Part shown: positions 4,628-62,941 of the stretch, piece after piece
How the letters are laid out: every line of letters begins with the position of its first letter
Position numbering within the stretch: the stretch's first letter is position 1
Source of the DNA: a virus
Taxonomy: Duplodnaviria > Heunggongvirae > Uroviricota > Caudoviricetes
Length of the DNA: 64,000 nucleotides
Direction: 5' to 3' (one strand)
Virus record (IMG/VR): IMGVR_UViG_2861084961_000001
Made by a program: the position numbers and the translations under genes
Notes under the pieces: generated by a model
Databases searched by the model: none
What the model saw: only the letters and a program-made list of their open reading frames with translations
What the model was told of the DNA's origin: nothing

Positions 4628-5809
4628 ATGAGCCTTTATGTTATATCAACATTTAGGTTGGTCACAATATTGCCTGTTAAAAGTGGAATTATCGTGAGCG
4701 AGCTGAAAGAGCTAATTACCGAATTAGATTTTGAACAATGGTTGGATACTGAAGGTATCGTTTATCGACGTGGAGGCGTGAGTGCTCGCGGTCGTGAAGT
4801 GAATATCAAGGAGTGTCCGGTATGCGGCAGCTCCAACTGGAAGGTATATTTCAATCTGACCAGCGGCGTCGGTAAATGCTTCGCTGGTGATCATCCCGAA
4901 GAGATTCAGTTCAATAAGCTGGTCTTCCTCAAGCACTACAGCGGTAAATCACGACGACAGTTCGAGGAATATGTGCAGAACGCTCTTCTTTCCCAGGGGT
5001 GGGCACCAAAGAAAGAAGAGATAGTGCTTGCAAGCACAGTCGAGTTAGAGGGACCACTTGCACTCCCTCGTCATTACGAACTTCCTATAGATGGCCGTCT
5101 TCCAGACTATCTGGTTGAACGAAACATATCGCCTGAAATGGCAAAGTATTTTGACCTACGATACTGCGTCGAAGGCAAGCACGCTTATGTTGACCCGTAT
5201 ACAGATCAGGTTAAAGGACAGATATTCGATATGCGAATACTGATACCGGTTTACGATCTGGATGGGGTAATGAAGACATTTCAGGGGCGAGACATTACCG
5301 GTGCAGCAGAACGTCGCTACCTCTTTCCTATGCAGCTTCCAGCTTCAGGTAAGTTTCTCTACAACGGCCATAATGCGCTCGGCAAACAGACTGTAGTTGT
5401 CTGTGAGGGGGCGTTCGATGTTATGGGGGTTAAACGAGCTATTTTTGATGAAGAAACATTACGTGATTACGTGGAACCGATAGGAACGTTCGGGATGCAT
5501 CTATCTGGCAACACCACTCAAGATGCAGAAGATCAGTTGGGCGCGTTCCTGACGCTCAAGGCACGTGGATTACGTAATGTGATCATGATGTGGGATAGTG
5601 AAAAGCAAGCTATACGCAACACTATGGCCGCGGCCAGGCGACTGACCAGTATTGGTCTTAATGTCAAAGTAGCGTGTTTGGGCGAGGAAGGACTCGACCC
5701 CGGCGATGCAACGCCAGAACAAATTATCAAAGCCTATTATCGGGCAAAACCGTATACCAAACAGTTGGAGTTGCAAAGCAAGGTTTTAGGCATTAAGGCT
5801 CTATCGTAA
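4628..5809 (+). CDS. DNA primase (zinc-finger + TOPRIM)
   Basis: CPVCGSS...GKCFAGDH zinc-binding motif; TOPRIM-like VVVCEGAFDVM; start chosen at ATG 4628 preceded by conserved AAAGAAAAACACATG rather than the longer ORF start 4556. Confidence 0.75.
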   Translation: MSLYVISTFRLVTILPVKSGIIVSELKELITELDFEQWLDTEGIVYRRGGVSARGREVNIKECPVCGSSNWKVYFNLTSGVGKCFAGDHPEEIQFNKLVFLKHYSGKSRRQFEEYVQNALLSQGWAPKKEEIVLASTVELEGPLALPRHYELPIDGRLPDYLVERNISPEMAKYFDLRYCVEGKHAYVDPYTDQVKGQIFDMRILIPVYDLDGVMKTFQGRDITGAAERRYLFPMQLPASGKFLYNGHNALGKQTVVVCEGAFDVMGVKRAIFDEETLRDYVEPIGTFGMHLSGNTTQDAEDQLGAFLTLKARGLRNVIMMWDSEKQAIRNTMAAARRLTSIGLNVKVACLGEEGLDPGDATPEQIIKAYYRAKPYTKQLELQSKVLGIKALS

Positions 5810-10111: not shown

Positions 10112-10186
10112 GATGGTGTAGCTCAGCGGTAGAGCAGTTGGCTGTTAACCAACTGGTCGGTGGTTCGAATCCACCCACCATCGCCA
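10112..10186 (+). tRNA. tRNA-Asn (anticodon GTT)
   Basis: Cloverleaf by eye: acceptor gatggtg/caccatc, anticodon loop ctGTTaa, T-loop ggttcgaat, CCA end. Confidence 0.8.
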
Positions 10187-10191
10187 ATTTA

Positions 10192-10278
10192 GGGGAGTTA
10201 GTCCGTAGAGGTAGCGGTGTAGACTGTAAATCTACTGTCATGGCGACTCGGGTGGTTCGACTCCATCACTCCCCACCA
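10192..10278 (+). tRNA. tRNA-Tyr (anticodon GTA), type II with long variable arm
   Basis: Acceptor ggggagt/actcccc, anticodon loop ctGTAaa, T-loop ggttcgact, CCA end. Confidence 0.75.
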
Positions 10279-10282
10279 AATT

Positions 10283-10358
10283 GCCGGTTTAGCTCAGTTG
10301 GTAGAGCGCCTGCCTTGTAAGCAGGATGTCAGCGGTTCGAGTCCGTTAACCGGCACCA
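10283..10358 (+). tRNA. tRNA-Thr (anticodon TGT)
   Basis: Acceptor gccggtt/aaccggc, D-arm agctcagttggtagagc, anticodon stem cctgc/gcagg with loop ctTGTaa, CCA end. Confidence 0.75.
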
Positions 10359-10582
10359 ATACAACGATAAGATCATTACGGTTAATCGTCGTTCATGTGC
10401 ACAATGACTGGTCGAAAGGTAGTGATCTTACCGTTGTGGTGGATTCGCAGACTGATGCGATAGCTTTCTTGGATGTTAGGGAAATGCGGCCGCAAATCTT
10501 CCCTTTCGCGAGCGGTGATCGTCCGTAGTCCTAATTGGCTGCACCGTATGCCGGAGATTCAGTACCGGCCACCACAACGGCC

Positions 10583-10669
10583 GGAGAGTAGGGAGCATGG
10601 TGCTCAAGCTGTCTTGAAAACCGCCCCATTGCGCAAGCGATGATGGTTCGATTCCATTACTCTCCGCCA
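10583..10669 (+). tRNA. Type II tRNA-like gene, anticodon TGA (Ser?), imperfect stems
   Basis: Acceptor ggagagt/actctcc, loop ctTGAaa, T-loop ggttcgatt, CCA; anticodon stem and variable arm pair poorly, may be non-canonical or pseudo. Confidence 0.5.
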
Positions 10670-52784: not shown

Positions 52785-54470
52785 ATGAATACAGCCCTTT
52801 CCATCATCGACGATGCCAGCTCAAACACGGCTATCGACTATCGTCAGGAAATGAATGTCATCCACGAAATCGTGGACGAGTGCGAGAAAGAGATCGCCTT
52901 CATGTATCAGGTACACGACTTCGTTTATGGCGACGAACGCCACAACATGATTAATCGCCTGCTGAGACTAAACCATCGACCAGATGAAGATCGCTCGCGT
53001 TTAAATCGAGGTTGGTTGGATAAAGTTGATCTGGAATGGGTGAAACAGAATATTTGGGCCGAGTACTGGAGGAAGGTCACGGACATGACTAACGTTTTGC
53101 TGATCATGCCAGCTTCCCGTCGAGATGAGTGGCGCGAGCAGTTTATAGAGGGCAAACAGGAAGTCATCAAAACTGACAGAACCGGCTACCAGATGAAGGT
53201 TAAAGAGTTCGTTGGTGTACCGGAGTTCAAAGCAGAAACGGTCATACCCACGATGCTTAATTTGCTGAATGACAGGCACAAATATCTCTCTGAGCGCGTG
53301 TATGGCTTGTTTAAGGCGCTGAGTCCTGCGCACAAGACAAATAAGACAAACGGTTTCAGCGAGCGTCTGATAATCGCTGACTGCATTTCTGATTTCTGGC
53401 GGGACAGCGTTAGCGTGAACTATCGCAAAGAGGACTACATCGACGATCTGCGTGTCTTGCTTCATTTCTTCGCGCACAAAGAATTTATTACCATCAACCG
53501 CACTGCTGAGGTGCTATCAGCTGCGTATCGGGCAAACGACTGCCAGACCGGTGACTGGATGAACGTCGATGGAAATCTGATGCGCGTGAAGATGTTCAAG
53601 AACGGCAACGTTCACTTTGAAATACATCCTGACGTGGCCTGGAAGTTGAATGAGGTGCTGGCTTACAGTATGCCTGCTGCAATCCCCGCGCCATGCCGAA
53701 CTGCGCCAAAAACACGGGCACCAAAGCAGTTCGGTTTAATCCAGAAGACGATCTCCGTGCCGGTTCGCACTGCGCTTCGTGACGGGCGATTGAGCAAAGA
53801 CAAAGGCGTATGGTACTTCTCTGATTCAGCTCTCCAGAAGTCGCAGGTGGAAGAGCTTGAGCGCACACTGAGCTTCATTGGCGGCGTGCAGGAGAAAAAG
53901 CACTGGCAGTTCCCGTATGACATCGGCCATACGCTAAATACGATTGTGGCTACCGGTTTAATACCGGATACAAAATCACACCAGTTCTACCCTACCCCAC
54001 GCTTGATTGCTGAGTACGTTGCCAGAGCCACTGAATTGAAGCCTGGTGAGAAGCTGCTTGAGCCTCACGCCGGACGTGGGGATCTTCTGGCCTATATTAA
54101 CGCCGATCTGGAAGATGTTACCTGCATAGAAATCGCACCTCTCTTCGCTGATATCCTGCGTGGAAAAGGGTATACGAACACGATTTGCTGCGACTTCATA
54201 AAGTGGTCTGAGGACAACGCAGGTTATCAGTTCGACAAAATCGTTATGAACCCGCCGTACTCGCTTGGTCGTCATAGGGAGCACACGATGGCTGCGCTGG
54301 GGCATCTGAAAGTCGGCGGGCGTCTTGTAGCAGTATTGCCGGGCACTGCGCCAATACTGGACTGGATGACGATGGATAATTACGTTTATGCCAGAGGGAA
54401 GTCGTTTACCAACGAGTTTGAAGACACAGGGATCACAGTCAGCGTATACGTTTTCAAACGCGTTAAATGA
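52785..54470 (+). CDS. Large protein with C-terminal N6-adenine DNA methyltransferase domain and ~400 aa N-terminal domain of unknown function
   Basis: FYPTP, LLEPHAGRGDLLAYI (SAM-binding) and VMNPPYS (catalytic) in C-terminal third; 561 aa intact ORF. Confidence 0.7.
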   Translation: MNTALSIIDDASSNTAIDYRQEMNVIHEIVDECEKEIAFMYQVHDFVYGDERHNMINRLLRLNHRPDEDRSRLNRGWLDKVDLEWVKQNIWAEYWRKVTDMTNVLLIMPASRRDEWREQFIEGKQEVIKTDRTGYQMKVKEFVGVPEFKAETVIPTMLNLLNDRHKYLSERVYGLFKALSPAHKTNKTNGFSERLIIADCISDFWRDSVSVNYRKEDYIDDLRVLLHFFAHKEFITINRTAEVLSAAYRANDCQTGDWMNVDGNLMRVKMFKNGNVHFEIHPDVAWKLNEVLAYSMPAAIPAPCRTAPKTRAPKQFGLIQKTISVPVRTALRDGRLSKDKGVWYFSDSALQKSQVEELERTLSFIGGVQEKKHWQFPYDIGHTLNTIVATGLIPDTKSHQFYPTPRLIAEYVARATELKPGEKLLEPHAGRGDLLAYINADLEDVTCIEIAPLFADILRGKGYTNTICCDFIKWSEDNAGYQFDKIVMNPPYSLGRHREHTMAALGHLKVGGRLVAVLPGTAPILDWMTMDNYVYARGKSFTNEFEDTGITVSVYVFKRVK

Positions 54471-55735: not shown

Positions 55736-56377
55736 ATGTCTAGTATTTCCGAAGCTCATATGTTCGCCGCTGGCGCTCATGGTGGCGTTGGTCAGAAAAG
55801 AAAATATACCGGCGAAGACTACATCAACCACCCGGTTGCTGTACGAGAGATTGTTGCATTGCATGACGGAACCGTGGATATGCAAATCGCGGCGCTTCTG
55901 CATGATGTGGTCGAAGACACCCATGTAACCATAGAGATGGTTCGTGATCACTTCGGTGAGCGCGTAGCTGAAATGGTTCAGGCTCTGACCAACATTGCAA
56001 GGCCAGAAGACGGCAATCGAATACAGCGTTTCATCATCAATGTCCGGGAGCTGGAGCAAAATCTCGACATGCAGACGCGCATGATCAAGCTGGCTGACCT
56101 GCTCGACAATACCTCTTCTATCGTGAGTCGCGATCCTGAGTTTTCAGCTATCTACCTTGCAGAGAAAGAGCTGATGCTGGACGTACTTTTTAACGGGAAG
56201 GAGATTGGTGCCAACGCTGATGTTGTCGAGTACATGGAGAGGATAGGTATAGAACACCCGTTGCTATTAAGCGCAATGGCGAAAGTCACTGAAGGTATTG
56301 CGCTTCTGAAACCGGAACACATCAAACGTTATGAAAAACACAAATCGCTGATCTGGAGCGCGTGGGAGGCTGCATGA
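55736..56377 (+). CDS. HD-domain hydrolase resembling RelA/SpoT-type (p)ppGpp hydrolase (small alarmone hydrolase candidate)
   Basis: INHPVAVREIV...AALLHDVVEDT HD motif and downstream ADLLDN; ~213 aa, no synthetase domain. Confidence 0.65.
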   Translation: MSSISEAHMFAAGAHGGVGQKRKYTGEDYINHPVAVREIVALHDGTVDMQIAALLHDVVEDTHVTIEMVRDHFGERVAEMVQALTNIARPEDGNRIQRFIINVRELEQNLDMQTRMIKLADLLDNTSSIVSRDPEFSAIYLAEKELMLDVLFNGKEIGANADVVEYMERIGIEHPLLLSAMAKVTEGIALLKPEHIKRYEKHKSLIWSAWEAA

Positions 56378-56526: not shown

Positions 56527-56916
56527 ATGGGCGGTGATGATGTGCAGACGTTCATCAAGCGAGTTAGCAACGACTATCTAATCGACAATTTCGACCCTCA
56601 ACTGCTAAGCACGGTCGACGATGACAACGATGCAAATCTGCTTTTCGTGAAGTCAGAAATCATAAAGTTACGAAGAGAGAGAGAAATCGACGCCGTACTA
56701 GCTCGTGAAATGTGGGACGAGGCGGAAAACGCCGATGACGTAAAAGAAAGCTGCTGTTGTTTCGGCGTCGGTAACAAACTGTTGAATCTCTTTGGTGATG
56801 ATCCGTGGTATGCCGACTGGCCAACTGTACCAAACCCGAAATACCAGTATCTGGAACGCATTGTGAACGCGGTACGTGAAGGGCTGAAAGAGTTAGACAA
56901 GTTAGAGGCATCGTAA
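56527..56916 (+). CDS. Hypothetical protein (129 aa)
   Basis: ORF in tightly coupled operon. Confidence 0.4.
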   Translation: MGGDDVQTFIKRVSNDYLIDNFDPQLLSTVDDDNDANLLFVKSEIIKLRREREIDAVLAREMWDEAENADDVKESCCCFGVGNKLLNLFGDDPWYADWPTVPNPKYQYLERIVNAVREGLKELDKLEAS

Positions 56917-57371
56917 TGAGAGAGAAAATCAAGAACCCGGTCGTCGTATTGTATAAACGGGAAACCAGCGATTCTTATGCGGTATCCATCACTGATGGAA
57001 GCCAGAACATGCACGATGGTCTGCTAATGGCCGCCGTATCTCCTGATGATTCGGACTACCCTTTCGCCACTTTCGCTATGGTTGGTTACTACATGGCTGC
57101 CGAAATTGAGAAGTTGCGGGCGCAGAGAGACGCATTAGCGGCGGAGAATGCAGCCCTGAAAGAATCTGAGCGAGCATTCGATGCGATGTGTGCCGAGGAA
57201 CACGGAGATAATTGGGTTAGCGAATTAACGGAGACTCCAGCCACCGATGCTTTTCTGGCTGAAGTACGTGCGCAGGGCGTGGAGATGTTTGCGGAGTGTG
57301 CATACACACTTGAACATCATGATCACGCAGTAGCTTTTGCCGCCGAGCTACGTAAAGGAGATAGACAGTGA
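56916..57371 (+). CDS. Hypothetical protein (151 aa)
   Basis: ORF; start overlaps upstream stop. Confidence 0.4.
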   Translation: MREKIKNPVVVLYKRETSDSYAVSITDGSQNMHDGLLMAAVSPDDSDYPFATFAMVGYYMAAEIEKLRAQRDALAAENAALKESERAFDAMCAEEHGDNWVSELTETPATDAFLAEVRAQGVEMFAECAYTLEHHDHAVAFAAELRKGDRQ

Positions 57372-57841
57372 GTGAGATTAACTACCTGGCGTTACGTGAG
57401 CGTTATTCACCAAAACCAGCGCCTAGATGCTCTGTTTGTGGCGAGGAAATGTCAATACAGCGCATATCTGGAGCACATGTCGTTTATGCCTGCTCCGGTG
57501 AGGGTGATGACGGATATTTTAAGATAGGACGTACTTTTGCAGACGAACATTATGAAAAATCACGCGTAACAGTAGTTGATGATAGTGATCCCGATGTGAT
57601 TGCACTGCTGGAAGAACTGGATAAAAGACGACATTACATCGGACGTCTTGAGCAGGAGAACGTAGAGATGGCCCTAACGCTTGAGAAGCTGCGTGTTGAG
57701 ATGAAGGCAGCCAAATCAAAACTCAACGAGCAGCGTGAGTATTACGAAGGTGTTATCTCGGATGGAAGCAAGCGCATAGCCGCTCTTCTTTGCAAGGACA
57801 ATCTTGTCAGCACCACGAACATTGAAGGTGAAAGAAGATGA
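57368..57841 (+). CDS. Hypothetical protein with CxxC pair and coiled-coil (157 aa)
   Basis: ORF; start overlaps upstream stop. Confidence 0.4.
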
Positions 57842-58161
57842 CCACATCGCATTCTGCTATTACCCAGGAAAAAGCCTTCAACATACTCGAACGACTAGAG
57901 ACGCTCGCTACGGAGGAGGAGATATCCCTGGAGAAACTGGTTGAGTTCAGCCGTGTGATATTGCGTCGCAAGAACGATATGGAGCGGCTGACATCTGGCG
58001 CTCCATCCTTATCAGCCAGGCGAACACTTTGTTGCAGCTTCTGCAACAAATCCCAGTACGCCGTCAAAAAGTTAATTGCTGGGGACGCCGTTTTCATCTG
58101 CGACGAGTGTGTGGATGTGTGCAACAGAATTATCCGGGGAGAGAAAGAGGGATCAGCATGA
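57838..58161 (+). CDS. ClpX N-terminal zinc-binding-domain-like protein (stand-alone, 107 aa)
   Basis: [38 protein letters not shown] closely parallels E. coli ClpX ZBD ([37 protein letters not shown]); no AAA+ module follows. Confidence 0.65.
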
Positions 58162-58709
58162 AATTTTCCAAATTTTCTGAGTCGGTGAATCGTATTTTGT
58201 CCAACAACCACAGCCATCGTCGCGATATGGATGTAACGATCGTTGTTCATTCGCCTGGTCGCATCGGTTCAACACCATCAGTTGAGGTTCAGTCAATTCA
58301 GGCGGGTTTTGATTGGGATGCCGGGCAAGTGATGATTTTTCCAGCACAGCCACTGACCACGCTAACACCGGAGCAGGTTGCTGATATTACTGAAAGTGTG
58401 CACAAAGGCCAGTCATGGCACGCGTATCAGGAATACAAGAAGCATAAAGAGCAGTTGGAAAAATTGTCGATGGAGTTGGAAGCCGCTAAACAGAGGGAAA
58501 AAGATCTGTTTATGGAAAATGTTCGACTTAAGTCAGGTATAGCCGGTCTGATACACCTCGGTATTCGATATGCGGATGTCGAGGTCATGAAAATAGCTGG
58601 AGATGCCCAGCTTTCTACTCCCTGTACTGACAGCATCATAAACAGTATTGCATCAGGCGTTTTCACCAAAGAGGGTCAGCATGATGAGAACAGTAGAAGT
58701 TCGCGCTGA
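58158..58709 (+). CDS. Hypothetical protein (183 aa)
   Basis: ATG 58158 overlapping upstream stop; longer ORF start 58029 rejected. Confidence 0.4.
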
Positions 58710-61840: not shown

Positions 61841-62941
61841 TCACACTGCGCGGAATGCGATTTCGCCAGGTATTACTTCACCTTGCCAATACATTTGGGC
61901 AGCAACGCGATCTGCGAGGTCACGATAAATAGCCGTAAATTCGCTATCTGGACGACTAATAACGGTTGGTGTTCCGTTATCCAGATCCTCACGAAGAGAG
62001 ATATGAAGTGGCATTTGGCCTAACAACTGCGTGTTGTATTTCTCGGCCAGTTTCTGTGCGCCACCGGTGCCAAAAATTGGCTCGTGATGACCGCAGTTAC
62101 TGCAAATATGCACACTCATGTTTTCGACGATACCTAGTACCGGCACTTCGACTTTTTCGAACATCACAATGCCTTTCTTCGCATCGATCAGCGCGATGTC
62201 TTGCGGCGTAGTTACCACAACCGCACCAGTTACAGGAATGTTCTGCGCCAGCGTCAATTGAATATCACCAGTGCCCGGCGGCATATCGAGAACGAGATAG
62301 TCCAGATCAGGCCACAGTGTTTCCTGCAACATCTGCATCAGCGCCTTGCTGGCCATCGGTCCACGCCACACCATTGCATTGTCGTCGGTGACCAGATAAC
62401 CAATAGAGTTGGTTGCCAGGCCATGAGACATGATAGGTGCCATGTGAGTACCGTCCGGTGAGGTTGGACGTTGGTTTTCCGCACCCAGCATGGTTGGAAT
62501 TGATGGACCGTAGATATCGGCATCCAAAATACCAACTTTCGCACCTTCAGCAGCCAACGCCAGTGCCAAGTTTACTGCTGTGGACGATTTGCCTACACCG
62601 CCCTTGCCTGAGCTGACGGCGATGATGTTCTTAACGCCATTAATGCCTGGTTGGTTTTTGACGCGCTTAAGCGTGGCAATGTTGTACGACAGCTTCCAGT
62701 CGATAGCCTTTGCGCCAGTGATACGGAGCAGATCACCACTACATTGCTCTTTCAGGTCTTCAAAAGGCTTATTCCACACGAAAGGCATGATTAGTTCGAC
62801 ATGCAGTGTGTCATCCATCAACGCAACATGGTGTAACGCTTTAAGCGTAGTCAGGTTGTGCTTCAGGGTTGGGTGCTGAAAATTAGCCAGCGTACCGGCT
62901 ACCATTGCTCTCAGGGCATCCGGCGATTTGGACTCGCTCAT
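61841..62941 (-). CDS. apbC: Fe-S cluster carrier ATPase ApbC/Mrp
   Basis: 366 aa; P-loop GKGGVGKS, CxxC; chromosomal gene divergent from metG as in E. coli. Confidence 0.9.
   Translation of the reverse strand: MSESKSPDALRAMVAGTLANFQHPTLKHNLTTLKALHHVALMDDTLHVELIMPFVWNKPFEDLKEQCSGDLLRITGAKAIDWKLSYNIATLKRVKNQPGINGVKNIIAVSSGKGGVGKSSTAVNLALALAAEGAKVGILDADIYGPSIPTMLGAENQRPTSPDGTHMAPIMSHGLATNSIGYLVTDDNAMVWRGPMASKALMQMLQETLWPDLDYLVLDMPPGTGDIQLTLAQNIPVTGAVVVTTPQDIALIDAKKGIVMFEKVEVPVLGIVENMSVHICSNCGHHEPIFGTGGAQKLAEKYNTQLLGQMPLHISLREDLDNGTPTVISRPDSEFTAIYRDLADRVAAQMYWQGEVIPGEIAFRAV

Follow-up and report, generated by a model that had tools for sequence, protein, structure and literature searches.

A phage-plasmid gene for a motor-free ClpX-type zinc-binding domain: a candidate ClpX N-domain acting in trans

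A two-domain gene within a string of probably coupled genes

The 64,000-nucleotide stretch of DNA analyzed here (IMG/VR record IMGVR_UViG_2861084961_000001; hereafter the window) is part of an SSU5-like phage-plasmid. Its 55-61 kb stretch is 97% identical to phage-like plasmids of Escherichia albertii, E. fergusonii, and E. coli, and Salmonella phage SSU5 is a relative as well. Within that stretch lies a small gene whose product joins a helical hairpin to a C-terminal zinc-binding domain (ZBD), the type found at the N-terminus of the host unfoldase ClpX (Table 1). The start of this ZBD gene overlaps the stop of an upstream Ead/Ea22-like open reading frame (ORF) in the tetranucleotide ATGA (57838-57841), and because of this stop/start overlap the two are probably translationally coupled. 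A second ATGA (58158-58161) places the stop of the ZBD gene on the ATG of the downstream ORF. With overlaps at both of its ends, the gene thus probably belongs to a series of small genes that are coupled in translation.

Table 1. Features of the ZBD gene and of other genes in the window
Feature	Position	Strand	Details
ZBD gene (two-domain), PHROG 6797	57838-58161	+	ATG start, 107 codons, TGA stop
Shine-Dalgarno-like AAGGTG	57825-57830	+	7 nt 5' of the ATG; read from the sequence
Family-specific helical-hairpin domain, residues 8-53	57859-57996	+	predicted helices 10-25 and 31-52
Flexible linker, residues 54-62	57997-58023	+	pLDDT <50 at 55-60; length and sequence vary between subfamilies
ClpX-type C4 zinc-binding domain (predicted treble clef), residues 63-103	58024-58146	+	Pfam, PDB, Foldseek
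First zinc knuckle C66-S-F-C69	58033-58044	+	ClpX Cys14/Cys17 (literature numbering)
Second zinc knuckle C88-D-E-C91	58099-58110	+	ClpX Cys36/Cys39
Ead/Ea22-like gene, upstream of the ZBD gene	57368-57841	+	Pfam PF13935, E=1.9e-30
Mosaic ORF, downstream of the ZBD gene	58158-58709	+	matches phrog_6026 and phrog_368
DUF4942 protein, 561 aa, first gene of the ZBD operon	52785-54470	+	PHROG 6263 ('DNA methyltransferase')
HD_4/HD-domain phosphohydrolase, in the ZBD operon	55736-56377	+	Pfam E=1.2e-18; PHROG 990
S24-family peptidase, 129 aa	61414-61803	+	begins 'MGFPSPAADYAE…'
ApbC/Mrp-like iron-sulfur cluster carrier ATPase	61841-62941	-	
Four-tRNA cluster (Asn-GTT, Tyr-GTA, Thr-TGT, Ser-TGA)	10112-10669	+	

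A ClpX-type zinc-binding domain without a motor

The original prediction for this gene was of a stand-alone mimic of the ClpX ZBD, matching the E. coli domain almost position for position and followed by no AAA+ module. The match was confirmed: the peptide on which it was based corresponds to residues 65-102, and 28 of 41 residues are identical to the E. coli ClpX ZBD without gaps. A Pfam search, which had been proposed as a check, aligned zf-C4_ClpX (PF06689) to residues 65-100 over profile positions 2-38 of 39 (E=1.2e-15) with 57.5 bits, against a gathering cut-off of 27 bits. The best matches among PDB sequences are the E. coli ClpX ZBD itself (2DS5/1OVX; E=7e-15, ungapped, residues 62-102). 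The cysteines C66, C69, C88, and C91 follow the layout CxxC-(18)-CxxC with the same spacing as in ClpX, and all four are invariant in 45 distinct family sequences, two obvious deletion mutants excepted.

An AlphaFold model was built on a 23-sequence family alignment (mean pLDDT 71). Residues 63-103, modeled at pLDDT 80-87, form two short strands and a C-terminal helix that superimpose on 2DS5, 2DS6, 2DS7, and 2DS8 at 0.4-0.5 A over 38 columns, with target-normalized TM scores of 0.83-0.93 (Foldseek). The ZBD is thus predicted to adopt the treble-clef fold of 1OVX/2DS5.

No AAA+ module follows, as had been expected: the protein ends at residue 107, five residues past the ZBD helix, and the next ORF has no AAA+ domain. 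The ClpX equivalogs (NCBIfam TIGR00382/NF003745) score 39-42 bits against cut-offs of 359-371 and align over their first 46-48 profile positions only. By contrast, phrog_6797, a family of unknown function, is matched end to end (E=2.5e-57, residues 1-106 on profile positions 1-106 of 107). On all the sequence and fold criteria applied, the phage protein is a member of PF06689 and PHROG 6797 and not a ClpX. A zinc-finger activator of the P2 Ogr/Delta type was also considered and rejected, given that there was no such Pfam match and that the gene position differs.

A conserved N-terminal domain found in this family only

What precedes the ZBD? The description "stand-alone" holds insofar as no AAA+ module is attached, but it overlooked residues 1-62, a conserved helical hairpin plus linker, of which the hairpin is under stronger constraint than the ZBD. 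The two hairpin helices are modeled at pLDDT ~72, and the linker that follows them is predicted to be disordered. This half of the protein is conserved at least as strongly as the ZBD: among 23 homologues, 23 of the positions from 7 to 59 never vary. An HMMER search of residues 1-60 alone against 1.84 billion representative proteins brought up no more than seven clusters. All are from this family, and in each the N-terminal domain precedes a ZBD, unless the cluster is evidently a frameshifted fragment. The N-terminal domain has no Pfam match and no sequence relative in the PDB, its structural matches are generic helical hairpins only, and a scan of GTDB genomes with its profile gave no confirmed loci.

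Family, subfamilies, and distribution

Approximately 25 full-length relatives, from Escherichia and Salmonella and 64-98% identical, were found in a large protein collection, where they are named either 'ClpX C4-type zinc finger protein' (RefSeq) or 'carboxylate--amine ligase'. The second label is attached to P0004, P0005, P0007, P0008, and others in our set, as well as to gp19 of phage P88 and gp034 of phage D6. It has no support in any of our profile searches and appears to be a propagated error.

Scanning IMG/VR with the profile of the N-terminal domain yielded 77 viral loci that fall into two subfamilies. Subfamily A (MTTSHSAIT…) is the type in the window and subfamily B (MQHIDREKA…) the type in phage P88; the two share ~42% identity in the N-terminal domain, and the two-domain architecture is kept in both. 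The protein is intact at 75 of the 77 loci. At the other two (L008 and L027, from around locus position 5001 onward), a short deletion within the ZBD takes out the fourth cysteine and joins the gene, in frame, to the downstream ORF, so that these loci represent natural knock-outs or fusions of the ZBD gene. Among 5,426 complete E. coli genomes, 220 (~4%) contain related sequence, 110 of those at query coverage of at least 80%, and the matches fall at 106 places on plasmids and 127 on chromosomes.

Bare ZBD-only ORFs also occur in unrelated lytic phages, namely Caulobacter phage Cr30 and Pseudomonas phage PP9W2 (65 aa). Phages may therefore use free ZBDs more widely, and the pattern suggests a recurring phage use of the domain. 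The Cr30 ORF (L085 1222-1461) is split or misannotated in its record as two short hypothetical coding sequences. Bacillus phage G gp258 was discarded as a candidate stand-alone ZBD, as it is a full-length ClpX-like protein encoded beside a ClpP-like gene. PF06689 is also present in hundreds of short non-ClpX proteins with varied extensions.

Divergence from host clpX and conservation of the adaptor pocket

Was the ZBD taken from the host? Comparison of its codons with codons 11-51 of E. coli K-12 clpX gives 63% nucleotide identity, with third codon positions identical at 19 of 41 codons and serine codons swapped between the AGY and TCN families. For all family ZBDs against clpX, pS is 0.8-1.0 (saturated) and pN is 0.15-0.28, and a sensitive blastn search of the 5,426 E. 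coli genomes with the ZBD gene never matched clpX. On account of the synonymous saturation and the missing blastn match, we reject both recent capture from host clpX and gene conversion with it; the ZBD is neither newly acquired nor homogenized with its host counterpart. Selection maintains the 67-82% protein identity of the family ZBDs to ClpX. Within subfamily A, dN/dS is ~0.26 for the N-terminal domain, ~0.58 for the ZBD, and ~2 for the linker. Both domains are functional, the N-terminal one being the more constrained, and the linker is a free tether.

The word "mimic" proved too strong for the window's own subfamily, whose ZBD is no nearer to host ClpX than to the ClpX of unrelated phyla. 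It matches Acidobacteria-like metagenome ClpX fragments (e.g., P0059) at 30 of 36 residues versus 26 of 36 for E. coli ClpX. The subfamily A domain looks like a generic ClpX-type ZBD that is not tuned to its host, and we found host-specific mimicry to be unsupported for it. Subfamily B, the P88 type, is nearer to E. coli ClpX (30-32 of 39 residues).

In ClpX, a hydrophobic ZBD pocket that includes Phe16 and Ile46, residues probed by mutagenesis (Rizzolo et al.), docks trigger factor, SspB, and RssB (PMC7804408). The counterpart of Phe16 in the phage protein, F68, is invariant in the 45 distinct family sequences, and position 98, the counterpart of Ile46, is Ile or Val in 43 of them, Ala in one, and Phe in another. 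Also nearly invariant, and the same as in ClpX, are the strand K78-L-I-A-G82 and the helix residues V92, C95, N96, and I99. Departures from ClpX are the replacement of Gly19 by Asn or Lys in both subfamilies and, in subfamily A, of Pro32 by Asp or Glu and of Tyr35 by Phe.

An early accessory gene in three phage backbones

The ZBD gene lies inside a co-directional block at ~52.7-60.6 kb of the window, with terminator-like sites at both ends and none convincing within. Also in the block are a DUF4942 methyltransferase-like gene, an HD_4 phosphohydrolase gene, and several Ead/Ea22-like genes of mosaic make-up. In D6, a P1-like phage-plasmid, the ZBD gene follows an Ead/Ea22-like gene; in the P2-like phage P88 and related prophages, it lies downstream of the gpA replication endonuclease and a ParM/StbB module, near Ead/Ea22-like genes. 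An intact, coupled copy is thus found in three unrelated temperate backbones (SSU5-like, P1-like D6, and P2-like P88), always co-oriented with early genes.

We clustered the immediate neighbors across the 77 IMG/VR loci. Subfamily A is flanked by Ead/Ea22-like genes in ~29 of 36 loci, and subfamily B mostly follows ParM/StbB and precedes unrelated small ORFs. A conserved partner gene was sought and discarded, as the neighbors differ between the subfamilies and none is universal. No replication initiator or toxin-antitoxin pair adjoins the ZBD gene. The original prediction had linked the protein to degradation of replication or addiction proteins, a link that no gene context supports; the gene lies among Ead/Ea22-like accessory genes in early operons. 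The ZBD gene behaves as an independently mobile early accessory gene, and its placement in the early operons of three phage backbones suggests that it serves early development and not plasmid addiction. Neither the ZBD protein nor five neighbors matched any PADLOC-DB defense profile (E<=0.01).

In P88-like prophages of the P2 family, the ParM/StbB partition module stands directly 5' of the subfamily B gene (L003 2665-3940; L005/L006 6439-7714), which hints that these 'integrated' phages are possibly maintained as plasmids too.

A ClpX N-domain acting in trans?

What could a ClpX N-domain do when freed from its motor? ClpXP acts in lambda-O turnover, MuA remodeling, degradation of the P1 Phd antitoxin and of UmuD', sigma-S turnover via RssB, and host stress responses. 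Our preferred reading, held at a probability of about 0.45, is that the protein works as a trans-acting ClpX N-domain that intercepts adaptors or substrates. A soluble paralogue of the ClpX N-domain would be expressed from the early or accessory operon of a temperate phage or phage-plasmid. Its C-terminal ZBD is predicted to fold, bind zinc, and dimerize like the ClpX N-domain and to expose that domain's hydrophobic docking pocket. Since no unfoldase ring is joined to it, the free ZBD would intercept ClpX ligands that are tethered through this pocket; candidates are SspB and RssB as adaptors, trigger factor, and substrates of the lambda-O, MuA, and UmuD type that depend on the N-domain. Delivery of such ligands to ClpXP would then fall while N-domain-independent degradation went on, giving a selective damping of N-domain-dependent degradation. 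The N-terminal hairpin, paired through ZBD dimerization by way of the flexible tether, may raise avidity or provide another specificity, directed at a partner from phage or host. The sequences themselves establish which domain this is, how the protein is built and conserved, that it is under purifying selection, and where its gene lies; that the phage protein binds zinc, dimerizes, and binds ligands, which way it would act on ClpXP, and which clients it would have, we infer.

Exactly the activity proposed here is that of the isolated recombinant ClpX ZBD, likewise a motor-free ZBD dimer (Micevski et al. 2020, PMC7226468). When purified, it dimerizes alone and cross-links to RssB's C-terminal domain, and at 5-20 uM against 0.6 uM ClpXP it inhibits RssB-mediated sigma-S degradation in trans (PMC7226468, Fig. 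1d). Unlike the phage protein, it is a laboratory construct without an N-terminal helical domain, and a large molar excess of it was needed. Wojtyra et al. reportedly also used an isolated ClpX ZBD as a competitor in vitro, in 2003. By analogy, titration of adaptors or substrates, or heterodimerization with ClpX, is biochemically plausible for the phage protein.

Several points weigh against interception. Literature searches found no interaction or activity data for the family. As an accessory domain, PF06689 is promiscuous, with fusions to cyanobacterial sigma factors as one example (PMC11119718), so that possession of a ZBD is no proof of action on ClpXP. High expression would be needed, since inhibition in vitro took a ~10-30-fold molar excess of free ZBD over ClpXP, and the gene is dispensable in that two natural copies bear ZBD-disrupting deletions. 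Within subfamily A, the ZBD is the less constrained of the two domains, and there is no sign of host-specific tuning, its ZBD being nearer to Acidobacteria-like ClpX. The counterpart of ClpX Leu43, a residue on the C-terminal helix by which the ClpX dimer packs, is variable and, in one clade, is Asp. Antiparallel packing of C-terminal helices and beta-hairpins holds the N-domain dimer of ClpX together (PMC5890618), so that Asp at this position may affect dimer geometry. Lastly, the conserved N-terminal domain is superfluous for a simple decoy, and the decoy model leaves it unexplained.

That the hairpin is the more constrained half of the protein speaks for a different function, in which the ZBD is a zinc-stabilized dimerization or binding scaffold and the hairpin or the ZBD surface binds another target, such as a transcription, replication, or defense protein, independently of ClpXP. 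We consider this rather unlikely. There is a precedent in the Bacillus subtilis anti-sigma factor CsfB (Gin; PDB 5N7Y), a small stand-alone treble-clef zinc finger that dimerizes like the ClpX N-domain and works outside the Clp system (PMC5890618); the sigma factor fusions and the many short non-ClpX proteins with PF06689 point the same way, as does the company of Ead/Ea22-like genes, which have roles in phage development rather than proteolysis. CsfB, however, is only ~20% identical to ClpX and presents other, divergent surfaces, whereas the phage family belongs to PF06689 and holds its 67-82% identity to ClpX, surface and pocket residues included, despite saturated synonymous sites. Maintenance of the fold alone hardly explains this, and no alternative target was indicated by Pfam, by PADLOC, or by PDB and structure searches with the N-terminal domain. 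A non-functional remnant, either a captured clpX fragment or a chance ORF in a mosaic region, was considered as well. The highly mosaic accessory region in which the gene lies, the disrupting deletions in two relatives, and a 147-aa shadow ORF on the opposite strand would suit it; purifying selection on both domains, the invariant cysteines, an architecture kept across subfamilies only ~42% identical in the N-terminal domain, a good ribosome-binding site with translational coupling, and the lack of DNA similarity to clpX do not. Selection and conservation together effectively rule out a pseudogene or chance ORF.

The phage ZBD might also act on ClpX itself, as a hijacking or poison subunit that heterodimerizes with the ClpX N-domain or docks on the ring and thereby cripples the N-domain or retargets ClpXP. 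In one variant, the N-terminal helical domain is a new receptor that delivers a host or rival-element protein for destruction, which is retargeting and not inhibition. Hijacking would account for the strongly conserved N-terminal domain, with its low dN/dS and its 23 invariant positions, on a flexible linker in an adaptor-like layout. The ClpX N-domain dimerizes antiparallel through its helix and beta-hairpins (PMC5890618), and it is in that helix and the ZBD core that V92, C95, N96, and I99 are nearly invariant and identical to ClpX. We nonetheless judge hijacking improbable: one clade has Asp at the Leu43 position, and HMMER, PDB sequence, and structural searches found no target for the N-terminal domain. 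Moreover, the ClpX ZBD dimer is constitutive and very stable, as Wojtyra reportedly found in 2003; exchange with a free ZBD should be disfavored by this stability and by the high local concentration of the partner within the hexamer. More improbable still is a phage-encoded substrate receptor whose ZBD pairs with or replaces the ClpX N-domain and whose N-terminal domain recruits a host defense or competitor protein for ClpXP. If true, such a plug-in receptor would be the first case of a viral adaptor made by copying the docking domain of the protease itself.

Relation to known systems

How does interception by a free ZBD compare with known ways of modulating proteolysis? With the E. coli ClpX ZBD, the phage domain shares PF06689, the CxxC spacing, a predicted fold within 0.5 A, and the Phe16/Ile46 pocket; it differs in being motor-free, phage-encoded, and C-terminal behind a helical domain, whereas the ClpX ZBD is N-terminal. 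The anti-adaptors IraD, IraM, and IraP are likewise small proteins that stabilize sigma-S by blocking adaptor delivery and not the protease itself, and it has been proposed that IraD and the ClpX ZBD dock on RssB at a common site (PMC7226468). The Ira proteins are unrelated to the phage protein in sequence and fold and use folds of their own to bind the adaptor, while the phage protein would copy the docking domain of the protease; none of the Ira families matched the phage protein in Pfam searches (E<=1).

Phage inhibitors of host AAA+ proteases include T4 PinA and T7 Gp4.5, which act on Lon, and lambda CIII, which acts on FtsH. These too are small early proteins through which a phage modulates an ATP-dependent protease of its host and so protects proteins of its own or of the host, but their targets are others, their folds are unrelated, and none is known to be a copy of a domain of the protease. 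No ZBD-based phage inhibitor or modulator of ClpX is known to us, and our literature searches returned no paper on the PHROG 6797 family or on any free ClpX ZBD encoded by a phage. The protein would take its place beside other phage modulators of host AAA+ proteases as a domain-copy decoy made from a domain that databases already recognize.

If interception or hijacking is true, cloning a protease's receptor domain would be a new and simple strategy, and the protein would be a natural selective tool for switching off N-domain-dependent ClpXP degradation. A function would then be at hand for a gene that ~4% of sequenced E. coli carry and that is also present in SSU5-like and P1-like phage-plasmids that bear resistance and are of clinical relevance, and the widespread 'carboxylate--amine ligase' misannotation would be corrected.

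Other genes of the window

The ORFs around the ZBD gene (57368-57841, 56916-57371, and 58158-58709) carry the PHROG modules phrog_368 and phrog_492 in varying combinations. They make up a mosaic set in which coiled-coil segments occur and starts and stops overlap in the ATGA manner. Only the first of the three reaches the Pfam Ead_Ea22 threshold. The downstream ORF has its PHROG matches and no Pfam match, and its phrog_368 also matches the upstream Ea22-like ORF. Elsewhere in the operon, the DUF4942 protein may be an anti-restriction methylase, and the HD_4 phosphohydrolase, for which the SSU5 annotation is putative guanosine polyphosphate pyrophosphohydrolase/synthetase, is possibly an alarmone hydrolase.

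The S24-family peptidase starts exactly at what we take to be the UmuD self-cleavage site (Cys24/Gly25). We speculate that it is a naturally pre-processed UmuD'-like protein comparable to P1 HumD. Degradation of UmuD' by ClpXP proceeds via tethering to the ClpX N-domain, and, equally speculatively, the UmuD'-like protein might be a client shielded by the ZBD protein.

Besides its tRNA genes, the window codes for a DnaB-like helicase, a RecA-like protein, a ribonucleotide reductase, and a thymidylate synthase. On the related plasmid pECAZ162_2 (L001 13362-16653), the ApbC/Mrp-like gene is followed by a full methionyl-tRNA synthetase gene; the phage-plasmid thus carries housekeeping-type genes.

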